From IMG/VR virus record IMGVR_UViG_2693429524_000013: DNA of 13,512 bases, one strand, 5' to 3'. This document shows positions 2,066-13,466 of the stretch, piece after piece (the stretch's first letter is position 1; the number at the start of each line of letters is the position of its first letter). Both the position numbers and the translations under genes were made by a program. The stretch is from a virus. Its lineage: Duplodnaviria > Heunggongvirae > Uroviricota > Caudoviricetes. The notes below the pieces were generated by a model. The model had not been told where the DNA came from. It was given only the letters and a program-made list of their open reading frames with translations, and did not search any database.

Positions 2066-3112
2066 TTATTTAGCCTTGGCTTTTGCCAGAGCAGCGGCGG
2101 CGGAGTTACTAACACTCACTTTAACCACAACTTCAGGCATCATGTTCATGAAAGCATAAGAGGATTCAATGAAGATTTCTCGTTTACCTCTGGACTCTTC
2201 CATATACATGAAAGCTTCACGTGCAGCGCCGTTTGCAAGCTTCAGGTTGCGAGCGCAAGGGCCGAAAAATTGAGTATAAACGCCCACCATATCGCCTAAC
2301 GCATGTGGCTGGAATTGTGGGACCAGATAAGCAGTATTCTCTGGCAGACTATCCATTTGCACCACACGCAGGGCTAAGCCCGGAATGCGGAAGGTCGGGA
2401 AGCCCGGCAGAATATCCTCAGGGAACATCAGGCCTTTGTCAGTGATATTTTGATTGCCGAACAACAGCACCTTACGGAGCAGTTCATCAGTCTGAATTGC
2501 AGCAAAGAGTTCAGCACGGCAGAACAGGGTGAAACCACGCAGAGCACGAACGACACCACGCTGTTTAACCTTGCTCAGTGCAACCAGGTCCTGCAGCTGT
2601 TTAAGGATATCTTTAGCTAAATCCACTTCTGAAGTGGTTTGCTGTGCGCCCAGCAGTTCGCACACATTCAGTTCTTTACCCTTGGTGAGGATAATTTTGT
2701 TCTCAAAGAGAGCAAGCTGGCGTGCTTCTTCGTGGGTCTGGCGTAAGCCTTCGCCAAGCTGAATAACACGACGAGCGGTTACAGACTCTAAATTCTCTTC
2801 GGAATCTTTGCCCGGAACGCGGATACCCTGCCAGTCAGAAGGATAAATAGCACTTGATGCGGCAGTGAATGCCATATCACCCGTGCCCGTTTCACGCTCA
2901 TCTGCGGTAATGGTCGCCATCTGTTCACCGTAGCGAGGATACTGACCGAAAGCAGATTGTTTCACCTGGCGAACTTTGTCATATTCAAATTTAAAGGTAT
3001 TGCACAGAGCAGTAGTGTTGAAGATATCCATTGCTGAAATAATCTGGTTATCCAGCGGGATGTCTTTAATCAGACCACACAGATCGCGAACTTCGAATTC
3101 TTTCTTAGCCAT
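2066..3112 (-). CDS. major capsid protein, lambda gpE-like family (348 aa from ATG 3112)
   Basis: AAGGAGG SD lies 6 nt upstream of ATG 3112; the track start at 3118 is a TTG. Size (~350 aa), position directly after a decoration-protein gene, and overall sequence character match the phage major capsid protein E family. A strong terminator lies downstream. Confidence 0.8.
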   Translation of the reverse strand: MAKKEFEVRDLCGLIKDIPLDNQIISAMDIFNTTALCNTFKFEYDKVRQVKQSAFGQYPRYGEQMATITADERETGTGDMAFTAASSAIYPSDWQGIRVPGKDSEENLESVTARRVIQLGEGLRQTHEEARQLALFENKIILTKGKELNVCELLGAQQTTSEVDLAKDILKQLQDLVALSKVKQRGVVRALRGFTLFCRAELFAAIQTDELLRKVLLFGNQNITDKGLMFPEDILPGFPTFRIPGLALRVVQMDSLPENTAYLVPQFQPHALGDMVGVYTQFFGPCARNLKLANGAAREAFMYMEESRGKREIFIESSYAFMNMMPEVVVKVSVSNSAAAALAKAKAK

Positions 3113-3123
3113 CTTCAACCTCC

Positions 3124-3459: not shown

Positions 3460-3584
3460 TTGATCACCTGCGATTTAAATTAACTCCCCTCAAAGAGTTC
3501 CGGTATAACCTCTCAAACCGCGACAGGCTCGGGCCGAAAAGTTATGCCGGAAATCTAAAGGGAAATTGATACAAGGAAAGGGAG

Positions 3585-3614
3585 ATAGCCCCGCACCGTC
3601 CAAGCGGGGGCTAT
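3585..3614 (-). terminator. GC-rich stem-loop in the leader of the capsid operon (possible attenuator)
   Basis: ATAGCCCCGC (3585-3594) pairs with GCGGGGGCTAT (3604-3614) with one bulge. On the minus strand it is followed by CUCCCUUUCCUUG, which is only moderately U-rich. Confidence 0.3.
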
Positions 3615-3787
3615 TCCATATGGGGAAAACCAACAACAGTTGGCTGATAGTTCACAGTATGGTTACGGTTACTAGAGAGCACTATCACGAAAGGCACTCC
3701 CCCGAATCAGTTCAGGCTGCGGTCACATCAGCGGGGAAATACCTTTCGGGATAGCTACCCACACAGAAAACCCGCAAAAGAAAACTG

Positions 3788-3796
3788 TGTGGATAA
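3788..3796. promoter_or_regulatory. consensus DnaA box (TGTGGATAA = TTATCCACA)
   Basis: Exact 9/9 match to the R-type DnaA box. It is a single copy in the non-coding leader. Confidence 0.3.
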
Positions 3797-3943
3797 CTAG
3801 CCCAATAGGAGAATTAATCGACCACTCAACGATGATCAGGGTAGTGTTATTTATAAGGCGGCACCGCTACCTGGTCGCCGTTACTTTGGAGGAAAATACG
3901 GCAAATCAAGATCTTCTCACATTGATATTGACGCCATATGTAT

Positions 3944-3972
3944 ATTATATCAGTATTTACTCACATTGTCAA
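3944..3972 (-). promoter_or_regulatory. perfect-consensus sigma70 promoter firing leftward toward the capsid operon
   Basis: The minus strand reads TTGACA (3972-3967), a 17-nt spacer, then TATAAT (3949-3944), with a TGn extended -10 (ctgaTATAAT). The -35 context is TTGACAAT, as in the three rightward promoters. Confidence 0.75.
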
Positions 3973-4070
3973 CACCCTGATTATATAAATTCTAATAATT
4001 AGCGTAGTAACGGTATTTTCAGACCTCTATCAATCCCATCAATACGTCACCCCACCCTTTAGACATATAC

Positions 4071-4101
4071 ATCTATCACTACTTTATAAAGCCTGATAGA
4101 T
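4071..4101. promoter_or_regulatory. operator-like inverted repeat ATCTATCA-N15-TGATAGAT
   Basis: 8-bp perfect arms at 4071-4078 and 4094-4101 with a central TTTATAAA. It is part of a set of five CTATCA/TGATAG hexamers between 4027 and 4222. Confidence 0.35.
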
Positions 4102-4195
4102 ATCCGTTGATCCTGATCAAGGTTTTCCGGGGATTTACCCGGTTATAGTTCGAATCAAGGAAGGGGAGCATTGATAGCACCCAAACCGAACAAAC

Positions 4196-4213
4196 AAATC
4201 AACTTCTCGCAAA
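4196..4213 (+). repeat. 18-nt motif AAATCAACTTCTCGCAAA, copy 1
   Basis: Identical to 4739-4756. It ends exactly 11 nt before ATG 4225. Confidence 0.85.
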
Positions 4214-4224
4214 AGGTGATAGTT

Positions 4225-4347
4225 ATGGGTATCAAGAACAGTGCCAGCGCATGGCAAAAGGCCAGGTTTCATCACCCACACATTGTTAAGGCAATTGAGG
4301 TGGTTGGAGTGTTAGCCCTGATGTTAGCTCTGTGTGTGGAGGTGTGA
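4225..4347 (+). CDS. 40-aa small membrane peptide (MGIKNSASAWQKARFHHPHIVKAIEVVGVLALMLALCVEV)
   Basis: Not in the ORF track because it is under 60 aa. AGGTGA SD lies 7 nt upstream. It has a hydrophobic C-terminal helix. Its stop is followed 1 nt later by another SD-led ATG (4349, 22 codons). Confidence 0.45.
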   Translation: MGIKNSASAWQKARFHHPHIVKAIEVVGVLALMLALCVEV

Positions 4348-4449
4348 GATGGGCAAAGGAGGCAAAGCATTTTTTAATAGGTCTGGCTATCCTGGATGTT
4401 CTACTAATCATGATTGAGCGGAGTTTATGAACAGCATTGAGAGGAGTTT

Positions 4450-4710
4450 ATGACGGGGGCTAAAGATATCAGGAGACTGAGGGAAGAGCTGATAGCTGAA
4501 ATTAAAGCTAAGGCAAAGCAAATGGAGATAGCCGCACAAATGGATGTAGCGGAACAGATGTACAAGATGGTTGAAGAGGGAACACCACGACAGGTTATCG
4601 CTAAAACCTTCGGTGTGGGGATCGCCACCGTGCACAGAAGGCTGAAAGCCTATGCCGACTACCACAACATTGAGAGAGGGGAGGATGGGAGATTTAAGAA
4701 GAATAAATAG
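4450..4710 (+). CDS. small coiled-coil plus C-terminal HTH DNA-binding protein (86 aa)
   Basis: GAGGAG SD is present. The segment TPRQVIAKTFGVGIATVHRRLKAY is a resolvase/sigma-region-4-style HTH. Its ATG overlaps the stop of an 8-codon uORF (4427-4453). GGAGTTTATGA is duplicated at 4420-4430 and 4443-4453. Confidence 0.75.
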   Translation: MTGAKDIRRLREELIAEIKAKAKQMEIAAQMDVAEQMYKMVEEGTPRQVIAKTFGVGIATVHRRLKAYADYHNIERGEDGRFKKNK

Positions 4711-4738
4711 TGTGAACAGTCCAATAGGTTATTAACTT

Positions 4739-4756
4739 AAATCAACTTCTCGCAAA
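4739..4756 (+). repeat. 18-nt motif AAATCAACTTCTCGCAAA, copy 2
   Basis: Identical to 4196-4213. It ends exactly 11 nt before ATG 4768. Confidence 0.85.
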
Positions 4757-4767
4757 GGGGTACCACT

Positions 4768-5289
4768 ATGTTATTCCAGAAAGACAAAGAATCAGTAAAT
4801 AAAAGGCTTTTTAAAGAACTGGTAAAAATGTTCTTTCAGTACACTGCAGCGTTTTTGATAGCCGGGCCTTGGTTAATGGCTATCTGTTTTTACCCTGCTA
4901 CCTTGTTTATTGGCAGTAGCAAGTTCGGCGATGGCCCGTTTCATGTGGATATTGGTTTTATAGATTCTCTCCTGATCCGTCCTATAAATGCTGTTCTCAA
5001 TGCTTTCTACTTCCCAACTAGTCTAGAGGGGTGGGCGGTAACCTGGGGTGTTTTAGGCTTAGCATATGTATATTGGTTGGTTGGCTTTTTGTGGGGTGCA
5101 ATCTGTGCTCTCCTCGATATTGATACAGGATCAAGCCGTAGGAGTAGTGGTAATAATAGCGGAGCGGGTGTATATGCACACGTAGGTACCAGAGGGGTAA
5201 GTATCACCGCAGGTACCCGATTCGCTGGCGGCTGGCTGAGTATAGGCAAACGCGGCGTTAGTTGGAGAAAAAGCAAAAAACTGTTCTGA
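4768..5289 (+). CDS. integral membrane protein (173 aa) with a Gly/Ser/Arg-rich C-terminal tail reminiscent of DUF4236
   Basis: Two long hydrophobic segments are present: FFQYTAAFLIAGPWLMAICFYPATLFI and WAVTWGVLGLAYVYWLVGFLWGAICALL. The tail GTRGVSITAGTRFAGGWLSIGKRGVSWRK resembles DUF4236. A clean terminator follows. Confidence 0.75.
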   Translation: MLFQKDKESVNKRLFKELVKMFFQYTAAFLIAGPWLMAICFYPATLFIGSSKFGDGPFHVDIGFIDSLLIRPINAVLNAFYFPTSLEGWAVTWGVLGLAYVYWLVGFLWGAICALLDIDTGSSRRSSGNNSGAGVYAHVGTRGVSITAGTRFAGGWLSIGKRGVSWRKSKKLF

Positions 5290-5297
5290 CCTACCAG

Positions 5298-5318
5298 GGG
5301 GCCATCACGGCCCCTTTT
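5298..5318 (+). terminator. rho-independent terminator of the accessory cassette
   Basis: GGGGCC (5298-5303), loop ATCAC, GGCCCC (5309-5314), then TTTT. Confidence 0.8.
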
Positions 5319-5342
5319 CTATTTCCAGTCGCTATAGCTCCT

Positions 5343-5414
5343 GAGTAATTCCACTCCCTGAGGTCGTGATCAATTCCACACCCTACCCCCTGATCAATTA
5401 ACCCCTATTTAATG
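5343..5414. repeat. three ~24-bp direct repeats (TGATCAATTCCAC-type)
   Basis: AATTCCAC occurs at 5347-5354 and 5372-5379. TGATCAATT occurs at 5367-5375 and 5391-5399. A related 17-mer CCCCTGATCA(A/T)TTAACC occurs at 5387-5403 and 6284-6300. Confidence 0.6.
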
Positions 5415-5446
5415 GGTATTTAATGCCTATTTATTGATTTAATCCG
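5406..5446. repeat. AT-rich 11-bp phased repeats (TATTTAATG x3-4), resembling a DNA-unwinding element
   Basis: TATTTAATG at 5406-5414 and 5417-5425, TATTTATTG at 5428-5436, ATTTAATCC at 5438-5446. The period is 11 bp. Confidence 0.55.
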
Positions 5447-5514
5447 TTTTATGCCACAACCGCCCGGTTGACAGAGTAAGAGAGAGGGTGTAACCCTTTT
5501 TCGTAATACTAATG

Positions 5515-5530
5515 AAATCAATAAGTTAGC
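5515..5530 (+). repeat. 16-nt motif AAATCAATAAGTTAGC, copy 1 (matches IHF consensus WATCAANNNNTTR)
   Basis: Identical 16-mer at 13259-13274. The core AATCAATAAGTTA fits WATCAA-N4-TTR. Confidence 0.6.
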
Positions 5531-5584
5531 TTAATAGGCCTTTTCTCTATTTTTGTCAAATTTAACATACCCTAAAAAACTGCA

Positions 5585-5618
5585 AAATCTGGCTGCAAGA
5601 TTATCTGCAGCTGGATTT
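5585..5618 (+). other. 34-nt imperfect hairpin
   Basis: AAATCTGGCTGCA pairs with TGCAGCTGGATTT. There are 13 pairs, including two G-T pairs that are wobble only if the plus strand is read as RNA. Confidence 0.4.
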
Positions 5619-6520
5619 CTTACACCTCATTTTGTGGTATCACCCTGACTAGTTTGTGCATAAATTGAACAGTTTTTAACATTTCCTCTTCACCTGGTAA
5701 CCACACAAAAAGCTAAAAACGAGGCACAGATAATCTTAGAGGCCTATTTTCTTGTTATCACTCTGGAAACGTCGTAGAAGTGATTTTGATGAAAGGCGAC
5801 CTACCCTATTACACCCCCATTTTTTGTTATCACAATTGCATCCTGTGTGGCTATATGGCTATGTGCTGAAAGCGGTCTCGGGTGTGGGTGTCAGAAATAT
5901 CCATTAGCGGTATTTGAGCTTATGGGTAACTCGTCTGAGGTGCCAGGCAGGCGCTCCCCTACCTCCCTTTTTTCTTCTAACAATTCTCAAATATCACACC
6001 ACTGCCCACCACGTTGCTATTATGTTAATTCTTAAGCTTTGCTGTATGTTGTGCACATTATTTATTCAGGTGGCTGTACGTAAATTCTGTGCCCACTGAT
6101 CATGATTTTTAAATCAGATTTTGTAGTGCGGTTTCTTAGTGCTGATAAGATCTATTATGTTAAATGCAATTTTCCCAACCCTTCAAATCAATGACTTACA
6201 TGTAAGCATGCACTAACACCACACACAGCACATTAGACGTATAGATGGCTATATCCCACATATTTGATTGTTTTGTAGTCATTCCCCTGATCATTTAACC
6301 AGTATAGTTTGTTATCTGCAGACCACAAAATCGGAATTTACATCTGATTAACATAATCTGTTAGCATGATCACCATTACCCACACAACAATAACCCCATG
6401 TAAGCCTCTTCAGGCAATTTATCGGCGTGTTGGTGTGAACAGTCTTTCATGTTCTTTATGTATCAGTTGTCCTGTGTGGTGATTTGGTGGACTGCCCCAG
6501 GGGCCATACTTATGATGCCC

Positions 6521-6559
6521 GGTCAACATAGCTGTTGATAAAATCAACGGGTGTTGACC
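6521..6559. promoter_or_regulatory. twin palindromic operator-like sites
   Basis: TCAACA-tagc-TGTTGA (6523-6538) and TCAAC-gggt-GTTGA (6544-6557), with centres 20 bp apart. Outer arms GGTCAACA and TGTTGACC also pair. Confidence 0.45.
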
Positions 6560-6632
6560 TGCATATTTCCCACACATGAGAGGAAATCAGAGCAAAGAGA
6601 GAGGAGAGAGGTTTGTTAGTCACATATGGTGA

Positions 6633-6664
6633 TTTGAGCTCATCTCAAACCTTCTACGAAGGCC
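6633..6664 (+). repeat. two-hairpin module, copy A
   Basis: TTTGAG-ctcat-CTCAAA (6633-6649) abuts CCTTC-TAC-GAAGG (6650-6662), followed by CC. The 5' flank is TCACATATG. Confidence 0.65.
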
Positions 6665-6719
6665 TTTGCTAGTCAAAATCAAGTCACATTAGAGTCAAAT
6701 CAGATGCAATCAATCCCCC

Positions 6720-7051
6720 ACCTGTTGGGATTTCCCACATGTTCAACCATACACAGGAGCTAACCTGTTGGGATTTCCTACAACCCCTTTCAGTCATACT
6801 CAGGCACCACACCCCGGTAAATATTTCCCTACTACCCCGGAGAATTTCTCCGCACTACCTGTAAAGAATTTTCACACCTGTGTGTTTATACAATCATACT
6901 CTCCTGTTTTGCAGTCATTGCACCCATGATACACAGCCCTAACCTGTAAAATATTTTTACTACCCCGCCAATAATACGGCCCATACCTGTAAAATATTTT
7001 TACTACTACCTGTCAAAATCTTTTACTACTACCTGTAAAAATATTTGACAC
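6720..7051 (+). repeat. array of nine ~21-23 bp iterons, consensus ACCTGTAAAATATTTTTAC(TAC); candidate replication origin or centromere
   Basis: Units start at 6720, 6763, 6813, 6836, 6857, 6942, 6985, 7008 and 7031. The last three abut with exact 23-bp phasing. Each unit has an internal dyad. Confidence 0.8.
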
Positions 7052-7080
7052 TAATAGATAAAGTAATAGACCACACAATA

Positions 7081-7118
7081 GATCCCCCTAACCCCCCAGG
7101 GGGGAATGGGGAGGGATC
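7081..7118. repeat. G/C palindrome GATCCC...CCCCCC-A-GGGGGG...GGGATC followed by G-tracts
   Basis: C6-A-G6 lies at 7092-7104. Outer arms are GATCCC (7081-7086) and GGGATC (7113-7118). Downstream G-tracts (G6, G4, G3, G4) fit a loose G-quadruplex pattern. Confidence 0.6.
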
Positions 7119-7167
7119 AGAGAGTGGGGAAGGTTTTCTAAGGGAAAAGCTTAACCCACAAATGAAA

Positions 7168-7196
7168 GCCTAAAGAGCATTAGCGACTCTTTAGGC
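7168..7196 (-). terminator. 10-bp perfect hairpin, terminator-like on the minus strand
   Basis: GCCTAAAGAG (7168-7177) pairs with CTCTTTAGGC (7187-7196) across a 9-nt loop. The minus strand continues UUUCAUUUG. There is no U run on the plus side. Confidence 0.45.
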
Positions 7197-7208
7197 AATC
7201 TGTGTGTG

Positions 7209-7243
7209 GGGTGACAATGTATTCCATACATGACACGTCACCC
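7209..7243. other. nested hairpin
   Basis: Outer stem GGGTGAC (7209-7215) pairs with GTCACCC (7237-7243). The inner hairpin is ATGTAT-tcc-ATACAT (7217-7231). Confidence 0.5.
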
Positions 7244-7271
7244 TGCTCACATGTGTGGTCCACTTCGTGGA

Positions 7272-7310
7272 TTTGAGTTCACTCCGTAACTCAAACCCTC
7301 TACGAGGGCC
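7272..7310 (+). repeat. two-hairpin module, copy B (compensatory changes relative to copy A)
   Basis: TTTGAGTT-cactccgt-AACTCAAA (7272-7295) abuts CCCTC-TAC-GAGGG (7296-7308), followed by CC. It is preceded by CCAC-ttc-GTGG (7260-7270) and the flank TCACATGTG. Confidence 0.65.
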
Positions 7311-7356
7311 TTGTGTGGGGAGCGTAGTGCGATAGCACGTAGCTATATAATGTGGA

Positions 7357-7390
7357 GTCCGGATAAGAGACTTCTGTTTCCAATCCGGAC
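7357..7390. other. 8-bp perfect hairpin with an 18-nt loop
   Basis: GTCCGGAT (7357-7364) pairs with ATCCGGAC (7383-7390). Confidence 0.5.
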
Positions 7391-7410
7391 CGTTTAAGCG
7401 AGTGGTTTCT

Positions 7411-7436
7411 CGCGCGCGTGCACGCACACATATATA
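7411..7436. repeat. 26-nt perfectly alternating pyrimidine/purine tract (Z-DNA-prone)
   Basis: CGCGCGCGTGCACGCACACATATATA. It contains the 10-bp palindrome GCGTGCACGC (7416-7425). Confidence 0.7.
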
Positions 7437-7461
7437 AAGGATACACTCATAAATCGAAAAT

Positions 7462-7480
7462 AAGGCCCCTAAATGGCCTT
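7462..7480 (-). terminator. hairpin, terminator-like on the minus strand
   Basis: AAGGCC-cctaaat-GGCCTT. The minus strand continues AUUUUCGAUUU. Confidence 0.4.
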
Positions 7481-7616
7481 CTGGCTGCATTAACTAGTTT
7501 GAGTAGTGTAATTGCATTACCTGATGCTCAAATCGCGTTGTAGGGCCTCTTATGATGTTTGAGTTTAACACCCTCCAAAGTTTTAACAAAAAGTGCTCTC
7601 CCTCCATTGTGGGCCA

Positions 7617-7646
7617 TTGACAATCTTATTGCATAAATGCTATAAG
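7617..7646 (+). promoter_or_regulatory. strong sigma70 promoter P1 (rightward)
   Basis: TTGACA (7617-7622), 18-nt spacer, TATAAG (7641-7646), with TGc extended -10. The -35 context is TTGACAAT. Confidence 0.6.
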
Positions 7647-7744
7647 TTATTCTGTTTTTGACACGGTAGGGGACATTAATAATGCTTACCCCTTTGCTGT
7701 GGACTTGTTTGTACCTATAGCTCGCCTAAATGATAATGATTCCC

Positions 7745-7774
7745 ATTGACAATTGGTTGTCAATATGATAAGAT
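7745..7774 (+). promoter_or_regulatory. sigma70 promoter P2 (rightward) with an overlapping 20-bp palindromic operator
   Basis: TTGACA (7746-7751), 17-nt spacer, TAAGAT (7769-7774), with TGa extended -10. The operator ATTGACAA-ttgg-TTGTCAAT spans 7745-7764. Confidence 0.6.
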
Positions 7775-7936
7775 TATAGATAGTGGGAGAAACAGATCCG
7801 GAGGTCAACGTGGAACTGAGCGACGCTATAGCGATCATCAACCTGGCTGTAATGTGGTGCGGTGTTGCCTACATAGCCGGAGTAACTGCAATCGACAACC
7901 TTGAAGAAAAAATGATAGATAAATACAAAAAGATTG

Positions 7937-7965
7937 TTGACAATCTCGCAAATAGCTGATAAAAT
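7937..7965 (+). promoter_or_regulatory. strong sigma70 promoter P3 (rightward)
   Basis: TTGACA (7937-7942), 17-nt spacer, TAAAAT (7960-7965), with TGa extended -10. The spacer contains TCTCGCAAA (7944-7952), the core of the 18-nt motif. Confidence 0.7.
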
Positions 7966-8016
7966 ATAAAGCATAGGGTAATTCTCATCATAGTGAATTT
8001 TCCTTTAATGAACTGG

Positions 8017-8044
8017 CGGGAGCTATTAGTTCCCGTTTCTTTTT
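8017..8044 (+). terminator. rho-independent terminator/attenuator between P3 and the first early gene
   Basis: CGGGA (8017-8021), 9-nt loop, TCCCG (8031-8035), then TTTCTTTTT. It lies ~50-70 nt downstream of the predicted P3 start and 44 nt upstream of ATG 8088. Confidence 0.6.
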
Positions 8045-8087
8045 AACCCTATATCGCACAGGCGGTGAGCTAACAGGAGATTGAATC

Positions 8088-8297
8088 ATGGCTAAAACCG
8101 GACCGATAAGCCAGCTGGTAAACTGGACTACTGACGAAATCGTCGAGAACGTGCTTAAAGGTAACTTTCGCAAAACTTCCGTTTATGCATTTATTCGAAA
8201 ACATAAAGGAGAATATCCACACATTGAAGCGGCAATAGAAAGATTAAACTTTATTAAACTTGAGCGCCAGCTGGAAAGATATAAACATCTGATTTAA
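8088..8297 (+). CDS. small early protein (69 aa), possible Cro/excisionase-like DNA-binding protein
   Basis: AGGAG SD lies 8 nt upstream. It is the first gene after the tandem promoters. The function call is weak. Confidence 0.7.
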   Translation: MAKTGPISQLVNWTTDEIVENVLKGNFRKTSVYAFIRKHKGEYPHIEAAIERLNFIKLERQLERYKHLI

Positions 8298-8317
8298 TAA
8301 ATAATTGTGAGGGAATT

Positions 8318-9202
8318 ATGGCAAACAATAAACTGGGGGCACATTTCACCCCCATTTTTAAACGTTTTATCAAGTATAATTTTGAAAATCCAATTGCAAA
8401 AACTACAACAGGCAAAGAGAGATTTAATTTAAATGCGACGGAATTGATAATTTACGGGGAAATGGTTGGCTTTCATTTAAACGGCAAAGAAATATTCATC
8501 TCGGAGCAGACCTTAGCAGATGATTGGGATTTTTCAAGACCAACGATTATTAAAGCTATTAAATCTCTAGTAAATGCTGGGATTATTTCTAAAGATAACC
8601 GGAAAGGCAAATCTAACATTTACAAACTGTTAATTACACCTGAGCAGTTTGATAAAATGTGCGATGAGCAGGGTATTAAAACCTTAGACAGTGTGGGAGA
8701 CAGCAAAGAGGCACCTGCTACACAGGCCCAAGATAATCAACAGGAAGCCCCAAAACAAGCCACACAGCAGCCTGAAAAGCCCGAGGCAATGCAATCCCCT
8801 TCCCAACCTAAAAAAGAACACAGAGAACGCCGTAGAGACGCTGGCAAACGTGAAATAGATGAGCACGGTTATCCGATTCTGACAAGCGATGAAATGAATG
8901 CCAGATATAAAGTAATTCAGGCCGCATTTAAAGATCAGAAGAGAATTAAATTATCTGAATTGCGTGATACATTTTACGGGCCGGAGGTGATGGATAAAAT
9001 TAAAGGCACTATTCCTGATAAAATCTGGAAAGAGGAAGATTACTGGCACCTGACAGAGCAGGCCCTTAAGGTAGCTCAACACGTGGTTAAAAGAGGCAAA
9101 TCAATTATTATTGATTCTATTAGTCATGGCTATGATGCACCGAAAGAAAGGTTGTGGAACAACTGCAAGCTTGTAAAAGGCGAATTGACAATTACAAAAT
9201 AA
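8318..9202 (+). CDS. replication initiator candidate: N-terminal winged-HTH (lambda O / replisome-organiser-like), Gln/Pro-rich linker, C-terminal domain (294 aa)
   Basis: The N-terminal segment ISEQTLADDWDFSRPTIIKAIKSLVNAGIISKDNRKGKSNIYKL is a classic wHTH of phage/plasmid initiators. A low-complexity linker APATQAQDNQQEAPKQATQQPEKPEAMQSPSQPKK follows. The three-part architecture resembles lambda O. Confidence 0.6.
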   Translation: MANNKLGAHFTPIFKRFIKYNFENPIAKTTTGKERFNLNATELIIYGEMVGFHLNGKEIFISEQTLADDWDFSRPTIIKAIKSLVNAGIISKDNRKGKSNIYKLLITPEQFDKMCDEQGIKTLDSVGDSKEAPATQAQDNQQEAPKQATQQPEKPEAMQSPSQPKKEHRERRRDAGKREIDEHGYPILTSDEMNARYKVIQAAFKDQKRIKLSELRDTFYGPEVMDKIKGTIPDKIWKEEDYWHLTEQALKVAQHVVKRGKSIIIDSISHGYDAPKERLWNNCKLVKGELTITK

Positions 9203-11144: not shown

Positions 11145-13247
11145 ATGGCAATGAAGGAAGTCGCCAGACTAACAAACGTTATTTACTGGGATTCTGATAA
11201 ATCCTCCTGGCGAAAAGAAGTTAAACGGCTTGAGGATTATAAAAAATCCTGGAAGAAAGCCACCGACGATATAGCTAAAGCTGATTTTAAATCTAATCAG
11301 GCTGTGCTCAGAACACAAAGAACACGCGCTAAGGTGGAAGAGCAGATTGCCAGAGCACAGAAGAAACAACGTGCTCAGGCTGTCAGCCGTCTGACCGGGG
11401 GCAATAATCCGGAGCTCTCCTCTATGCGCAAGTTCTATCAGCAGCAAGCCAGAGAAGCCGCCAGACAACAAAAACTGTTAGATCGTAGTGTTGGAGATGT
11501 TCAGCACAGAAAAGCACGTGTAGGGGCCAACAGTGCACGAATCAGCAGCATGTTTGATGGATCCCTGGTTGCTCAGTTCCAATCCAGAATCCAGAGAGTT
11601 AATGCTGATTATGCTAAAGGGGCTATTAACCTGCAGACCTATAATCAGAAAATGGCTCGGCTCAGAGCTGAAATGAAGATGGCAACAGTAGAGGCCGGAA
11701 AATTTCAGAGCAGACTGGATAAACTGGCATCAGGTGCCAGCAAGGTGCATGACAACCTGGGCAAAATCAACTCCACACTAGGCAAGATAGCCATTGGCCT
11801 TACTGCCGCTGGCTGGGGTGTTCAGCGTGCTGTTAGTGGTGCTATGGGTAGCCTTGCAGATCGCAACAGTGCCTACTTCGGTTTGATGGCACAGAACAAG
11901 GATGATAAAGCCAAGACTGACCAGCAGATGGCCTACGTCAAAAGAATCTCTTATGACTATGGGATGGATCAGCGTGAGACCGAAGGCGGCTTTATGCGCT
12001 TTGCTGCAGCCACACCAAGCATAAAAGAGAAAGATAAGCAGGATCTCTTTGAGGCTATGGCGATTAAAGGCCGATCAGTGGGTGCTACTGCGGACCAACA
12101 GAACAGGGCTATCGTTGCACTAGGACAGATATATAGCAAGGGCGGTCGAGTGTATGCGGAAGAGCTTAAGGGCCAGCTGTCAGAAGCCCTGGCAGGTTCT
12201 CAGGTAGATTTCACTAAGGCCGCTATCGATGCCGGAATCATCAAGAAAGAGGAAGAATTTAATAAAGCCCTTGAAGATGGCAAGATCACCATGGACAAGC
12301 TTCTTCCTTCCCTAGTGAAAATCTGGGGTGCTGCAAAAGAAACTAAAGCTTTTGCTGAATCCATGAAACAGCCAGAAGTAGCAATGCAGCGCATGAAAAA
12401 CAGCTTTAACGAGCTGGCGATTCAGTTTATGGGTGTTGTGGATCCTGCCGATGGCGTTGTTAGCTTATCTGAATCTCTGATCTCCATCTTCGAAGACCTC
12501 ACCACTGATATGGACGGCAGCGGGAGCGCGGCAAAACAGTTTGGTGAAGCAGTCGGTGCTGCCATGCGGGAGATCATGTATTGGGTAGGCTTCGCTAAGG
12601 GCTATATCGAGGTCAAGGCTAAAGAGTTCGGCATGACCGGATCAGAGGTTGGCGAGCTTATCGGGAAACTAGTAGTCGGCTTAGCAGGTCTGAAAGTTAT
12701 TACCACACTGCTTTCCCCTCTAACCGGATTTGTTTCACTTGTCACTCAGCTGATAGCCTTGTTAGGCAAAATCCCTGGTATGAGCAAGCTTATGGCATCT
12801 GCCTCAGGTGGAACGGCAACAGGAGCAGCGGTCATCAGTGCAGGATCTAACGCTGAAAGAAGTTTCATTGATGGCAAGACGCAGGAAATGAGTAAGGAGA
12901 ACTCAAAACAGGGCGCTTTGTTTGAGCTGGGGAGATTTGTCAGCAATGCTGGCGCACTGTTCACACCTGGCGGTGATACTGGTCCTTTGTTCGATCAGGT
13001 CAAAGGCTGGTTTAATAAAGGGCCAACATTGACAGTAGACACTGGCATCAGACCAACACCAACAGGCGGCATAGCTATCCAGAATGGTGGATATCAACCA
13101 GTCCAAGTAAATGTAGCCCCACAAGGTGAGATTTCCGGCAAATGGGAGATAACCATCGATGAGGGGGGAATTGCCAGGGTGATCCAGAAGGAAGTCAGCG
13201 ATCAGTTGGATTGGAAAGCCACACAGGAATCTAACCAGCTTTTCTAA
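11145..13247 (+). CDS. tail tape measure protein (700 aa)
   Basis: GAGGTG SD is present. The N-terminus is coiled-coil-like. The segment ALGQIYSKGGRVYAEELKGQLSEALAGSQVDF matches the conserved tape-measure domain core. Hydrophobic segments are present (LVVGLAGLKVITTLLSPLTGFVSLVTQLIALLGKIPG), and the C-terminus is Gly-rich. Confidence 0.85.
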   Translation: MAMKEVARLTNVIYWDSDKSSWRKEVKRLEDYKKSWKKATDDIAKADFKSNQAVLRTQRTRAKVEEQIARAQKKQRAQAVSRLTGGNNPELSSMRKFYQQQAREAARQQKLLDRSVGDVQHRKARVGANSARISSMFDGSLVAQFQSRIQRVNADYAKGAINLQTYNQKMARLRAEMKMATVEAGKFQSRLDKLASGASKVHDNLGKINSTLGKIAIGLTAAGWGVQRAVSGAMGSLADRNSAYFGLMAQNKDDKAKTDQQMAYVKRISYDYGMDQRETEGGFMRFAAATPSIKEKDKQDLFEAMAIKGRSVGATADQQNRAIVALGQIYSKGGRVYAEELKGQLSEALAGSQVDFTKAAIDAGIIKKEEEFNKALEDGKITMDKLLPSLVKIWGAAKETKAFAESMKQPEVAMQRMKNSFNELAIQFMGVVDPADGVVSLSESLISIFEDLTTDMDGSGSAAKQFGEAVGAAMREIMYWVGFAKGYIEVKAKEFGMTGSEVGELIGKLVVGLAGLKVITTLLSPLTGFVSLVTQLIALLGKIPGMSKLMASASGGTATGAAVISAGSNAERSFIDGKTQEMSKENSKQGALFELGRFVSNAGALFTPGGDTGPLFDQVKGWFNKGPTLTVDTGIRPTPTGGIAIQNGGYQPVQVNVAPQGEISGKWEITIDEGGIARVIQKEVSDQLDWKATQESNQLF

Positions 13248-13258
13248 TATTGTGATCT

Positions 13259-13274
13259 AAATCAATAAGTTAGC
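13259..13274 (+). repeat. 16-nt motif AAATCAATAAGTTAGC, copy 2 (IHF-consensus match)
   Basis: Identical to 5515-5530. It lies 12 nt after the tape measure stop. Both copies are preceded by TAATA(C/T). Confidence 0.6.
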
Positions 13275-13350: not shown

Positions 13351-13466
13351 GCGGGGCAAAACCTGCTAACAAAAATCAACCTCTCGCGAGACTAATGTTA
13401 GCAGGTTGCCGGAAGGTAAGTCAACTCCGGTCTATAAACCTTAAAGCGACTATAAAATTGCCCCGC
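13351..13466 (-). ncRNA. candidate structured RNA (three helices) ending at the 13297-13329 terminator; strand and function uncertain
   Basis: Outer 9-bp helix: GCGGGGCAA (13351-13359) with TTGCCCCGC (13458-13466). Perfect 12-bp helix: AACCTGCTAACA (13360-13371) with TGTTAGCAGGTT (13396-13407). Third helix: CCGGA (13409-13413) with TCCGG (13426-13430). Confidence 0.3.
13373..13390 (+). repeat. 18-nt motif, diverged copy 3 (AAATCAACCTCTCGCGAG, 15/18)
   Basis: It lies in the 24-nt loop of the 12-bp hairpin. The core has become the 10-bp palindrome TCTCGCGAGA. Confidence 0.6.

Follow-up and report, generated by a model that had tools for sequence, protein, structure and literature searches.

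The 13,512-bp window analysed here (IMG/VR record IMGVR_UViG_2693429524_000013; the term denotes this whole stretch of DNA) is a complete circular E. coli plasmid element of ~13.5 kb, and comparison of its sequence with those of its relatives supports the view that the non-coding positions 5400-5570 constitute a distinct conserved cis-acting site, which would be strongly constrained and not part of the main iteron origin. This module combines a helically phased AT-rich array with short motifs that are invariant and rigidly spaced, among them a probable site for the integration host factor (IHF), and it does not vary with the type of replication initiator (Rep). An earlier note on the same DNA had proposed a second theta-type origin at 5343-5560, on the strength of 24-bp direct repeats, an 11-bp-phased AT-rich tract and an IHF-consensus site. 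We tentatively favor a different function, namely an IHF-bent protein-assembly site for packaging or for another helper-phase DNA transaction of what looks like a phage satellite, with the initiation of packaging as the first choice.

Organization of the conserved module

The module region was aligned in ~21 family members, which were drawn from complete plasmids, from NCBI and Logan assemblies and from metagenome contigs. Four of these members are divergent, with a non-coding block that is just ~80% identical. Upstream of the module lies the intrinsic terminator (5296-5316, + strand; called by the terminator scan) of a rightward operon encoding a helix-turn-helix (HTH) protein and a cargo gene, which is kept in all relatives whatever cargo gene they carry; in most of them an 11-bp array begins right at the T-run of this terminator. 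In the window, the array occupies 5406-5446 on the + strand and consists of helically phased units, as had been claimed: Tandem Repeats Finder (TRF) detects a period of 11 with 2.7 copies at 5404-5433, and by eye four units, TATTTAATGGG, TATTTAATGCC, TATTTATTGA and TTTAATCCG, can be recognized with starts at 5406, 5417, 5428 and 5438. The relatives carry five to eight such units of the TATTTAW type. The array ranks among the 0.5% least stable 40-bp windows, and its final 16 nt (TATTTATTGATTTAAT, 5428-5443) are invariant across the family alignment.

The remaining motifs follow on the same strand at fixed distances. Between the array and an invariant GTTGACA (5467-5473) there are 13 or 23 bp; from this motif it is exactly 41 bp to the core of the IHF-like site, and exactly 30 bp separate that core from an invariant TGTCAAATTTAACAT (5554-5568) to its right. 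The sole variable gap, that between the array and GTTGACA, shifts by exactly 10 bp, which corresponds to one helical turn. The IHF-consensus site itself (AAATCAATAAGTTAGC, 5515-5530, with the core AATCAATAAGTTA at 5516-5528 and the A/T-rich 5′ flank TAATACTAATGA) is present in all relatives. Pattern matching confirms its fit to the consensus WATCAANNNNTTR, with which the conserved island AAATCAATA-NN-TTA coincides, and the changes seen among members are restricted to the N positions (TAAG, TAGC, TAAC). The window has four matches to this consensus as against 1.1 expected, a number that 10 of 300 shuffles reach. The matches at 6186 and 13260 are likewise conserved in all members, and an exact second copy of AAATCAATAAGTTAGC is found at 13259-13274 (+ strand), just after the stop codon of the tape-measure gene and near the cumulative GC-skew maximum. 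Judging from these patterns, 5515-5530 is probably an IHF bending site.

By comparison, the sequence between the module motifs diverges freely, also in the members whose block is ~80% identical; in two of the divergent members, L030 and L033, it has diverged almost fully, and the neighboring coding genes differ by 15-40%. The helically quantised spacing of the short invariant motifs, taken together with the phased array and the IHF core, points to a folded nucleoprotein complex. The gapped pattern of the invariant motifs found no match in 185,579 species genomes or in IMG/VR. In megablast and blastn searches of phages, plasmids and 5,426 E. coli genomes, the queries 4700-6700, 5290-5650 and 5400-6620 recovered only the same plasmid family, plus one 50-nt match at the Xer site described below.

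Two further features of this stretch hold up less well. The small hairpin with a T5 tract exists (GGGT-GTA-ACCC at 5486-5496 and the tract at 5497-5501, + strand), but it has a weak stem of 4 bp and its palindrome is lost or shifted by ~10 nt in L030 and L033, the TTTT at 5498-5501 alone being invariant. We accordingly rejected it as an intrinsic terminator, which the terminator scan does not call either. The reverse complement of TGTCAAATTTAACAT agrees with the XerD-arm consensus at 10 of 11 positions when compared by eye; a full Xer site around this XerD-arm-like element (5559-5569) was discarded, as no XerC arm adjoins it by eye and the Xer scan lists none there.

The 24-bp repeats that had been described as running into the array are a facultative insertion and not a conserved part of the module. 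Three units of about this length carrying TGATCAATT do exist at 5336-5359, 5361-5384 and 5385-5408 (together 5336-5408; repeat scan and family alignments), with TGATCA/GATC sites at 5367 and 5391 and AATTCCAC at 5347 and 5372, and the first two are 79% identical. However, the third is only ~58% identical as counted by eye, with TGATCAATT in common with the others, TRF reports no 24-bp array at a score of at least 30, and of 20 tabulated members, 12 lack the units (one row, that of L003, coming from a separate alignment). In the other eight they occur as an insertion inside the 11-bp array; that related units recur in some relatives indicates that they are not a chance feature. The TGATCA hexamer, present twice in the window, is found nowhere in this region in 12 of the 20. 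The further 17-mer reported at 6284-6300 is real and forms part of a 22-nt repeat with 86% identity, the direct-repeat scan placing a copy of CCCCTGATCA(A/T)TTAACC, related to the third unit, at 6284-6305 (+ strand).

Independence from the replication initiator

The main origin (6720-7083, + strand), in which an AT-rich stretch follows ~8 iterons of ~20-23 bp, varies together with the Rep gene (8318-9202), and at least five iteron types, ACCTGTAAAA, ACCTGTTGGAATT, CCCCGGTAAATATT, TACCCCGGAAGATTT and TTTACCGGGGT, change in step with Rep. The module is identical across five or more of these iteron/Rep types. As it stays constant while the Rep/iteron cassette switches, the module is not read by Rep, and a Rep-dependent second origin or incompatibility array is therefore excluded. 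The idea that the element has two distinct cis sites survives in the form of a separate conserved site, 1.3 kb from the main iterons (6720-7050) as had been stated, but without a Rep-driven second origin or incompatibility locus.

A proposed site for packaging or another helper-phase transaction

The reasoning for the function that we favor starts from the nature of the element. Because it combines a plasmid form with rV5-related structural genes and lacks others, it appears to be a plasmid-borne satellite of the rV5-like Vequintavirinae, which are virulent myoviruses of 135-140 kb. Its tube initiator and neck protein are 51% and 45% identical, respectively, to their counterparts in these phages, and its capsid and tape-measure genes are also related to those of rV5-like phages. 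On the ~13.5-kb element there are no terminase, portal, protease, sheath or baseplate genes; given the lack of a terminase or portal gene, packaging would have to come from a helper. The DNA of rV5 is circularly permuted (PMC3606486), which implies headful packaging. A helper-phase role for the module is suggested by this apparent dependence on headful-packaging phages.

The module also forms the left edge of a nearly invariant gene-free block of ~1.08 kb (5540-6620, from conservation profiles), which sits between the variable cargo slot and the variable Rep/iteron cassette and counts among the best-conserved parts of the aligned 4450-8500. This block appears related to the presumed helper: 16 of its 62 12-mer positions shared with the rV5-like phage MaxTheCat fall in the 2.5-kb gene-free region of that phage (90,051-92,584), where 1.9% would be expected, as against 0-6% for the shared 12-mers of other satellite regions. 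The best match is 23/24 nt at 5972-5995, and a 57-nt profile alignment has E=0.003; no significant match to this phage lies inside 5343-5560 itself. The Rep independence of the module and its contiguity with this helper-related block together point to a partner that is constant across the family, be it the host (IHF), the helper or the element's own proteins.

Lambda cosB and P1 pac both combine protein-binding repeats with an IHF site. We rank a pac-like role first on account of this combination and because a satellite of a headful phage needs packaging recognition. The five to eight AT-core units of 11 bp, all on one face of the helix, would then act as a phased binding array, behind which GTTGACA, the run of four T residues, the IHF site and TGTCAAATTTAACAT would be set at quantised distances. 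IHF would bend the DNA sharply at 5516-5528, a specific binder of the ATTTAA/ATCAA motifs would sit on the array, and through the bend the array would come to lie folded against the conserved block on its right. The folded complex might in turn serve as the recognition site for the helper-phase DNA transaction, in the first place for pac/cosB-like packaging initiation. The most plausible binder of the array would be the element's own 86-aa Hin-like HTH protein, which is encoded 700 bp upstream. It has a helical N-terminal part and a C-terminal Hin-like HTH (E=3.6e-4 to the Hin DNA-binding domain, PDB 1HCR), and the HTH part is invariant across the family. Hin half-sites contain TTATCAA/TTGATAA, the invariant module motifs contain TTGAT/ATCAA, and AAATCAA is threefold enriched in the element; recognition of ATCAA/ATTTAA motifs by this protein is hence plausible.

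By the arrangement of its parts, the module would belong with the known IHF-bent repeat-array sites. Among these, lambda cosB (R3-I1-R2-R1) and P1 pac have protein-binding repeats beside an IHF site whose bend assembles the packaging-recognition complex, and P1 pac has TGATCA/Dam hexamers like those in the window's 24-bp units. Unlike these systems, the helper here appears to be a headful packager, a cosN-like nick site cannot be seen, most relatives lack the TGATCA units and no small-terminase homologue is detectable. A P1-pac-like reading of the TGATCA units themselves was rejected because these units are facultative.

Several considerations weigh against a packaging role. The region 5343-5560 shares just chance-level 10-11-mers with an rV5-like genome, 5290-5650 has no similarity to the phage records, and the 86-aa protein shows no detectable similarity to small terminases. 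If the helper packaged in a T4-like manner without sequence specificity, no pac site would be needed. Moreover, the architecture would be no less apt for a centromere, for an operator array or for an accessory region of an origin. These alternatives rank behind packaging in the order of a regulatory site, then a centromere-like site and a helper-dependent origin, which we hold to be equally improbable, and lastly no dedicated function.

Regulatory and coding potential

The best-placed alternative, although an unlikely one, is a regulatory site, i.e. an operator, silencer or insulator array for the HTH protein, IHF and perhaps H-NS, which from behind the operon terminator would govern transcription into the block and the origin, or else act as an activator-dependent promoter. 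Its position directly after the terminator fits such a site, the TTGACA within GTTGACA is a perfect and invariant -35 hexamer, and the phased AT-rich array upstream of it, with a spacer quantised by 10 bp, is reminiscent of class I activator sites. The heptamer AAATCAA, with 14 copies as against 4.6 expected (12 of them on the + strand, and occurring also before three small open reading frames (ORFs)), is enriched in a way that fits a regulator with many sites. Against this stands the lack of a conserved -10 element: a sigma-70 promoter at TTGACA was rejected, as the hexamer 17 bp downstream is TAACCC, TCACCC, TAAAGC or TGGAGC depending on the member, and a promoter scan of 5200-5740 calls no promoter. 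Furthermore, there is no ORF or structured RNA for 2 kb downstream. None of the ORFs of at least 20 aa in 5400-6700 is both intact in all members and endowed with third-position bias, Rfam has no match at E<0.1 for the gene-free block, and folding z-scores are ~0 relative to shuffles across 5540-6620 on both strands. The segment 5380-5620 (+ strand) does reach z-scores of -2.6 to -3.5; this mildly low folding energy is attributable to the inverted repeat formed by TTATTGATTT (5431-5440) and its inverted partner AAATCAATAA (5515-5524).

A possible centromere-like stability site

It is less probable still that the module is a centromere-like stability site, in which an adaptor would coat the 11-bp array, as ParR does parC or StbA does stbS, and IHF would fold the complex, as in P1 parS, such that the plasmid is positioned or segregated. 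The likeness to these systems is evident in the contiguous short direct repeats at one helical turn, variable in copy number, which in R1 parC and R388 stbS likewise have an 11-bp periodicity and are bound by a small adaptor protein; it extends to the IHF site with phase-sensitive spacing, given that in P1 parS, too, the IHF site is flanked by short AT-rich boxes and just whole-turn changes of spacing are tolerated. A small HTH protein is encoded in the same operon region, and the Pfam, PHROGs and NCBIfam scans of the window ORFs name no other partition function. On the other hand, none of the ORFs scanned matches a ParA, ParM or TubZ-type NTPase, in contrast to the known partition systems; whereas parC and stbS overlap the promoter of their adaptor gene, the array is situated beyond a terminator and away from the promoter of the putative adaptor gene; and the TATTTAW motifs match no known parS, parC or stbS box. 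An O-type replicon with an Xer site would also resemble a multicopy, randomly segregating plasmid that needs no centromere.

A possible helper-dependent origin

The proposal of a theta-type origin at 5343-5560 is not sustained, and what remains of it is the equally doubtful possibility of a helper-dependent 'lytic' origin, or of an accessory unwinding site, used by the phage replisome and not by the plasmid Rep. The module has, in common with pSC101, R6K gamma, P1 oriR and lambda ori, an AT-rich meltable stretch, an IHF consensus and nearby direct repeats, and of all 40-bp windows of the element, segments covering the array and the IHF region (5404-5443 and 5497-5536) are two of the ten least stable; judged by composition alone, a role in unwinding is conceivable. 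It adjoins the block that shares motifs with the rV5-like gene-free region. T7 origins consist of a promoter and an AT-rich region. A replisome of the T7 type, comprising PolA and a gp4-like primase-helicase, is encoded by the rV5-like phages (PMC3606486), which would suit such an origin.

However, the repeats of the module are not Rep iterons: matches to the main iterons in 5343-5560 fall below 13 of 20 positions at best. No DnaA box (TTWTNCACA with up to one mismatch) was found in 5343-5560, the nearest consensus box being at 5655-5663 and lost in L030. The 24-bp repeats are dispensable, being missing from most relatives, and there is no covariation with the Rep type. The real iteron array, 1.3 kb away, has its own AT-rich flank and a GC-rich palindrome, such that the main origin already combines iterons, an AT-rich stretch and a palindrome in the manner of lambda ori. 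The cumulative GC skew reaches its minimum at these main iterons, where the least stable 100-bp window of the element (6983-7082) is also located, and the rV5-like gene-free region lies at a GC-skew maximum with a dif-like site, and in this looks more like a terminus than an origin.

Around the main origin itself, two additional observations were made. All iteron variants, those of 6720-7050 and of the relatives alike, contain GTAAA(A/T)AT inside a short palindrome. A motif TggTAaAAtA was proposed as a late promoter in the rV5 genome paper (PMC3606486), and its resemblance to the iteron core could be a coincidence or could link late transcription of the helper to the origin/tail operon. Further, a double-hairpin element (CTCAAACCTTCTACGAAGGCCTT, CTCAAACCCTCTACGAGGGCCTT) occurs twice, at 6633-6666 and 7257-7312, and brackets the variable origin cassette; the pairing of its second hairpin is kept through a T>C / A>G double change.

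Finally, it is very unlikely that the module has no dedicated function and is a slippage-prone AT-rich spacer behind a terminator whose motifs are kept by recent common ancestry, for although the unit number is variable, 24-bp units of unrelated sequence have been inserted and the known relatives, all of them from E. coli, show close overall relatedness, five motifs and two spacings are invariant where the inter-motif sequence of L030 and L033 has almost fully diverged.

Dif-like Xer sites of the putative satellite and its helper

The gene-free block contains a putative dif/cer-like XerC/XerD site, AGTGCTGATAA-GATCTA-TTATGTTAAAT (6138-6165, + strand), with 19 of 22 arm positions identical to dif and a 6-bp center. 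As in dif, cer and psi, an 11-bp XerC arm, the 6-bp center and an 11-bp XerD arm can be discerned, the XerD arm being that of dif and, with the center, invariant in the family; unlike in those sites, the XerC arm matches at just 7-8 of 11 positions. Pattern matching verifies the IHF consensus reported at 6186-6198 (AATCAATGACTTA, + strand), 20 bp to the right of the Xer site. XerD-arm-like TATGTTAA has four copies in 5559-6357 as against 0.6 expected.

The rV5-like phages have a dif-like site of their own with perfect XerC and XerD arms, GGTGCGCATAA-TGGGTA-TTATGTTAAAT (MZ501094.1 91429-91456; L018:41429-41456). It lies in their gene-free region, ~700 bp from the cumulative GC-skew maximum, and is conserved at 95% or more in ~120 phage records. 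In the phage pangalan, an ORF of 87 aa, the last one preceding the gene-free region, carries the annotation 'DNA translocase FtsK'.

The heptamer CCACACA/TGTGTGG has 20 sites in the window as against 1.3 expected, mostly in non-coding stretches (for example at 3759, 3786, 4276, 5701, 5844, 6380, 6473, 6570, 7203, 7252 and 7312), and seven copies are found in the 2.5-kb gene-free region of the rV5-like phage. We rejected it as a polar motif akin to the FtsK-orienting polar sequences, as it has no strand polarity around the Xer site in either satellite or phage. The copy at 3788-3796 constitutes a perfect DnaA box.

Gene content and distribution of the family

On the minus strand, the element encodes a tail-completion/Neck1-like protein (236-694), a Dit-like 'tail tube initiator' (691-1611) and the major capsid protein (2066-3118). 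The 86-aa protein (4450-4710, + strand; Pfam HTH_7) is followed by the cargo gene, which in the window encodes a membrane protein of 173 aa (4768-5289). The Rep is an O/DnaD-like replication initiator, and the last of the tail genes encodes a 700-aa tape measure (11145-13247).

With the conserved leader and the terminator kept the same, the cargo slot of relatives is occupied by unrelated ORFs of 179, 195, 225, 236 or 239 aa, a layout that recalls the defense hotspots of P4-like satellites. A repeated AAATCAACYTCTCGC (4196-4216, 4739-4759 and 13373-13393) stops in each case 10-20 nt short of the ATG start codon of either a small ORF or a cargo ORF, and its three copies may be a shared leader or operator. 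A second stretch of ~1 kb without annotated genes (3460-4450) separates the divergent capsid and HTH operons; its perfect DnaA box, noted above, sits in a 25-nt inverted repeat (3742-3809), and TATAAATA, the T4 late-promoter consensus, is found at 3848-3855 (minus strand), oriented toward the capsid operon.

Matches that extend end to end, with 92-94% identity, are found in seven of 5,426 complete E. coli genomes as circular non-mobilizable plasmids of 13.2-13.7 kb, and five PLSDB records match the window over its whole length. In one record (NZ_CP043822.1; L009) the element is present as three slightly degraded copies joined head to tail (39.6 kb), a trimer that reflects either multimers in vivo or an assembly fault. 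Among 5.8 billion proteins, the capsid protein falls into 18 clusters and the HTH protein into nine; both are confined to this family, and all of these clusters derive from E. coli contigs of ~13-14 kb, with one HTH cluster (P0020) present on 111 contigs. Searching the literature by protein accession and by satellite and plasmid terms, we found no published description of this plasmid family. A 2025 review cites just one phage satellite as shown to be a plasmid (PMC12282955).

Implications

The co-occurrence of repeats, an AT-rich tract and an IHF site is not diagnostic of an origin: comparison across the family removes the apparent 'iterons' and leaves a putative architectural site that is independent of Rep. 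With the same tentativeness as for packaging, we propose that this module and the adjoining ~1.1-kb block may be the cis interface through which an undescribed plasmid satellite exploits virulent rV5-like myoviruses, by way of packaging recognition, helper-driven replication or both. Such a satellite would build its own capsid shell and inner tail, and satellite and helper would each have a dif-like Xer site of their own. If the module is indeed a handle for the helper or the host, it would offer a defined target of ~170 bp for understanding how a plasmid-type satellite of a virulent E. coli phage is packaged or maintained.

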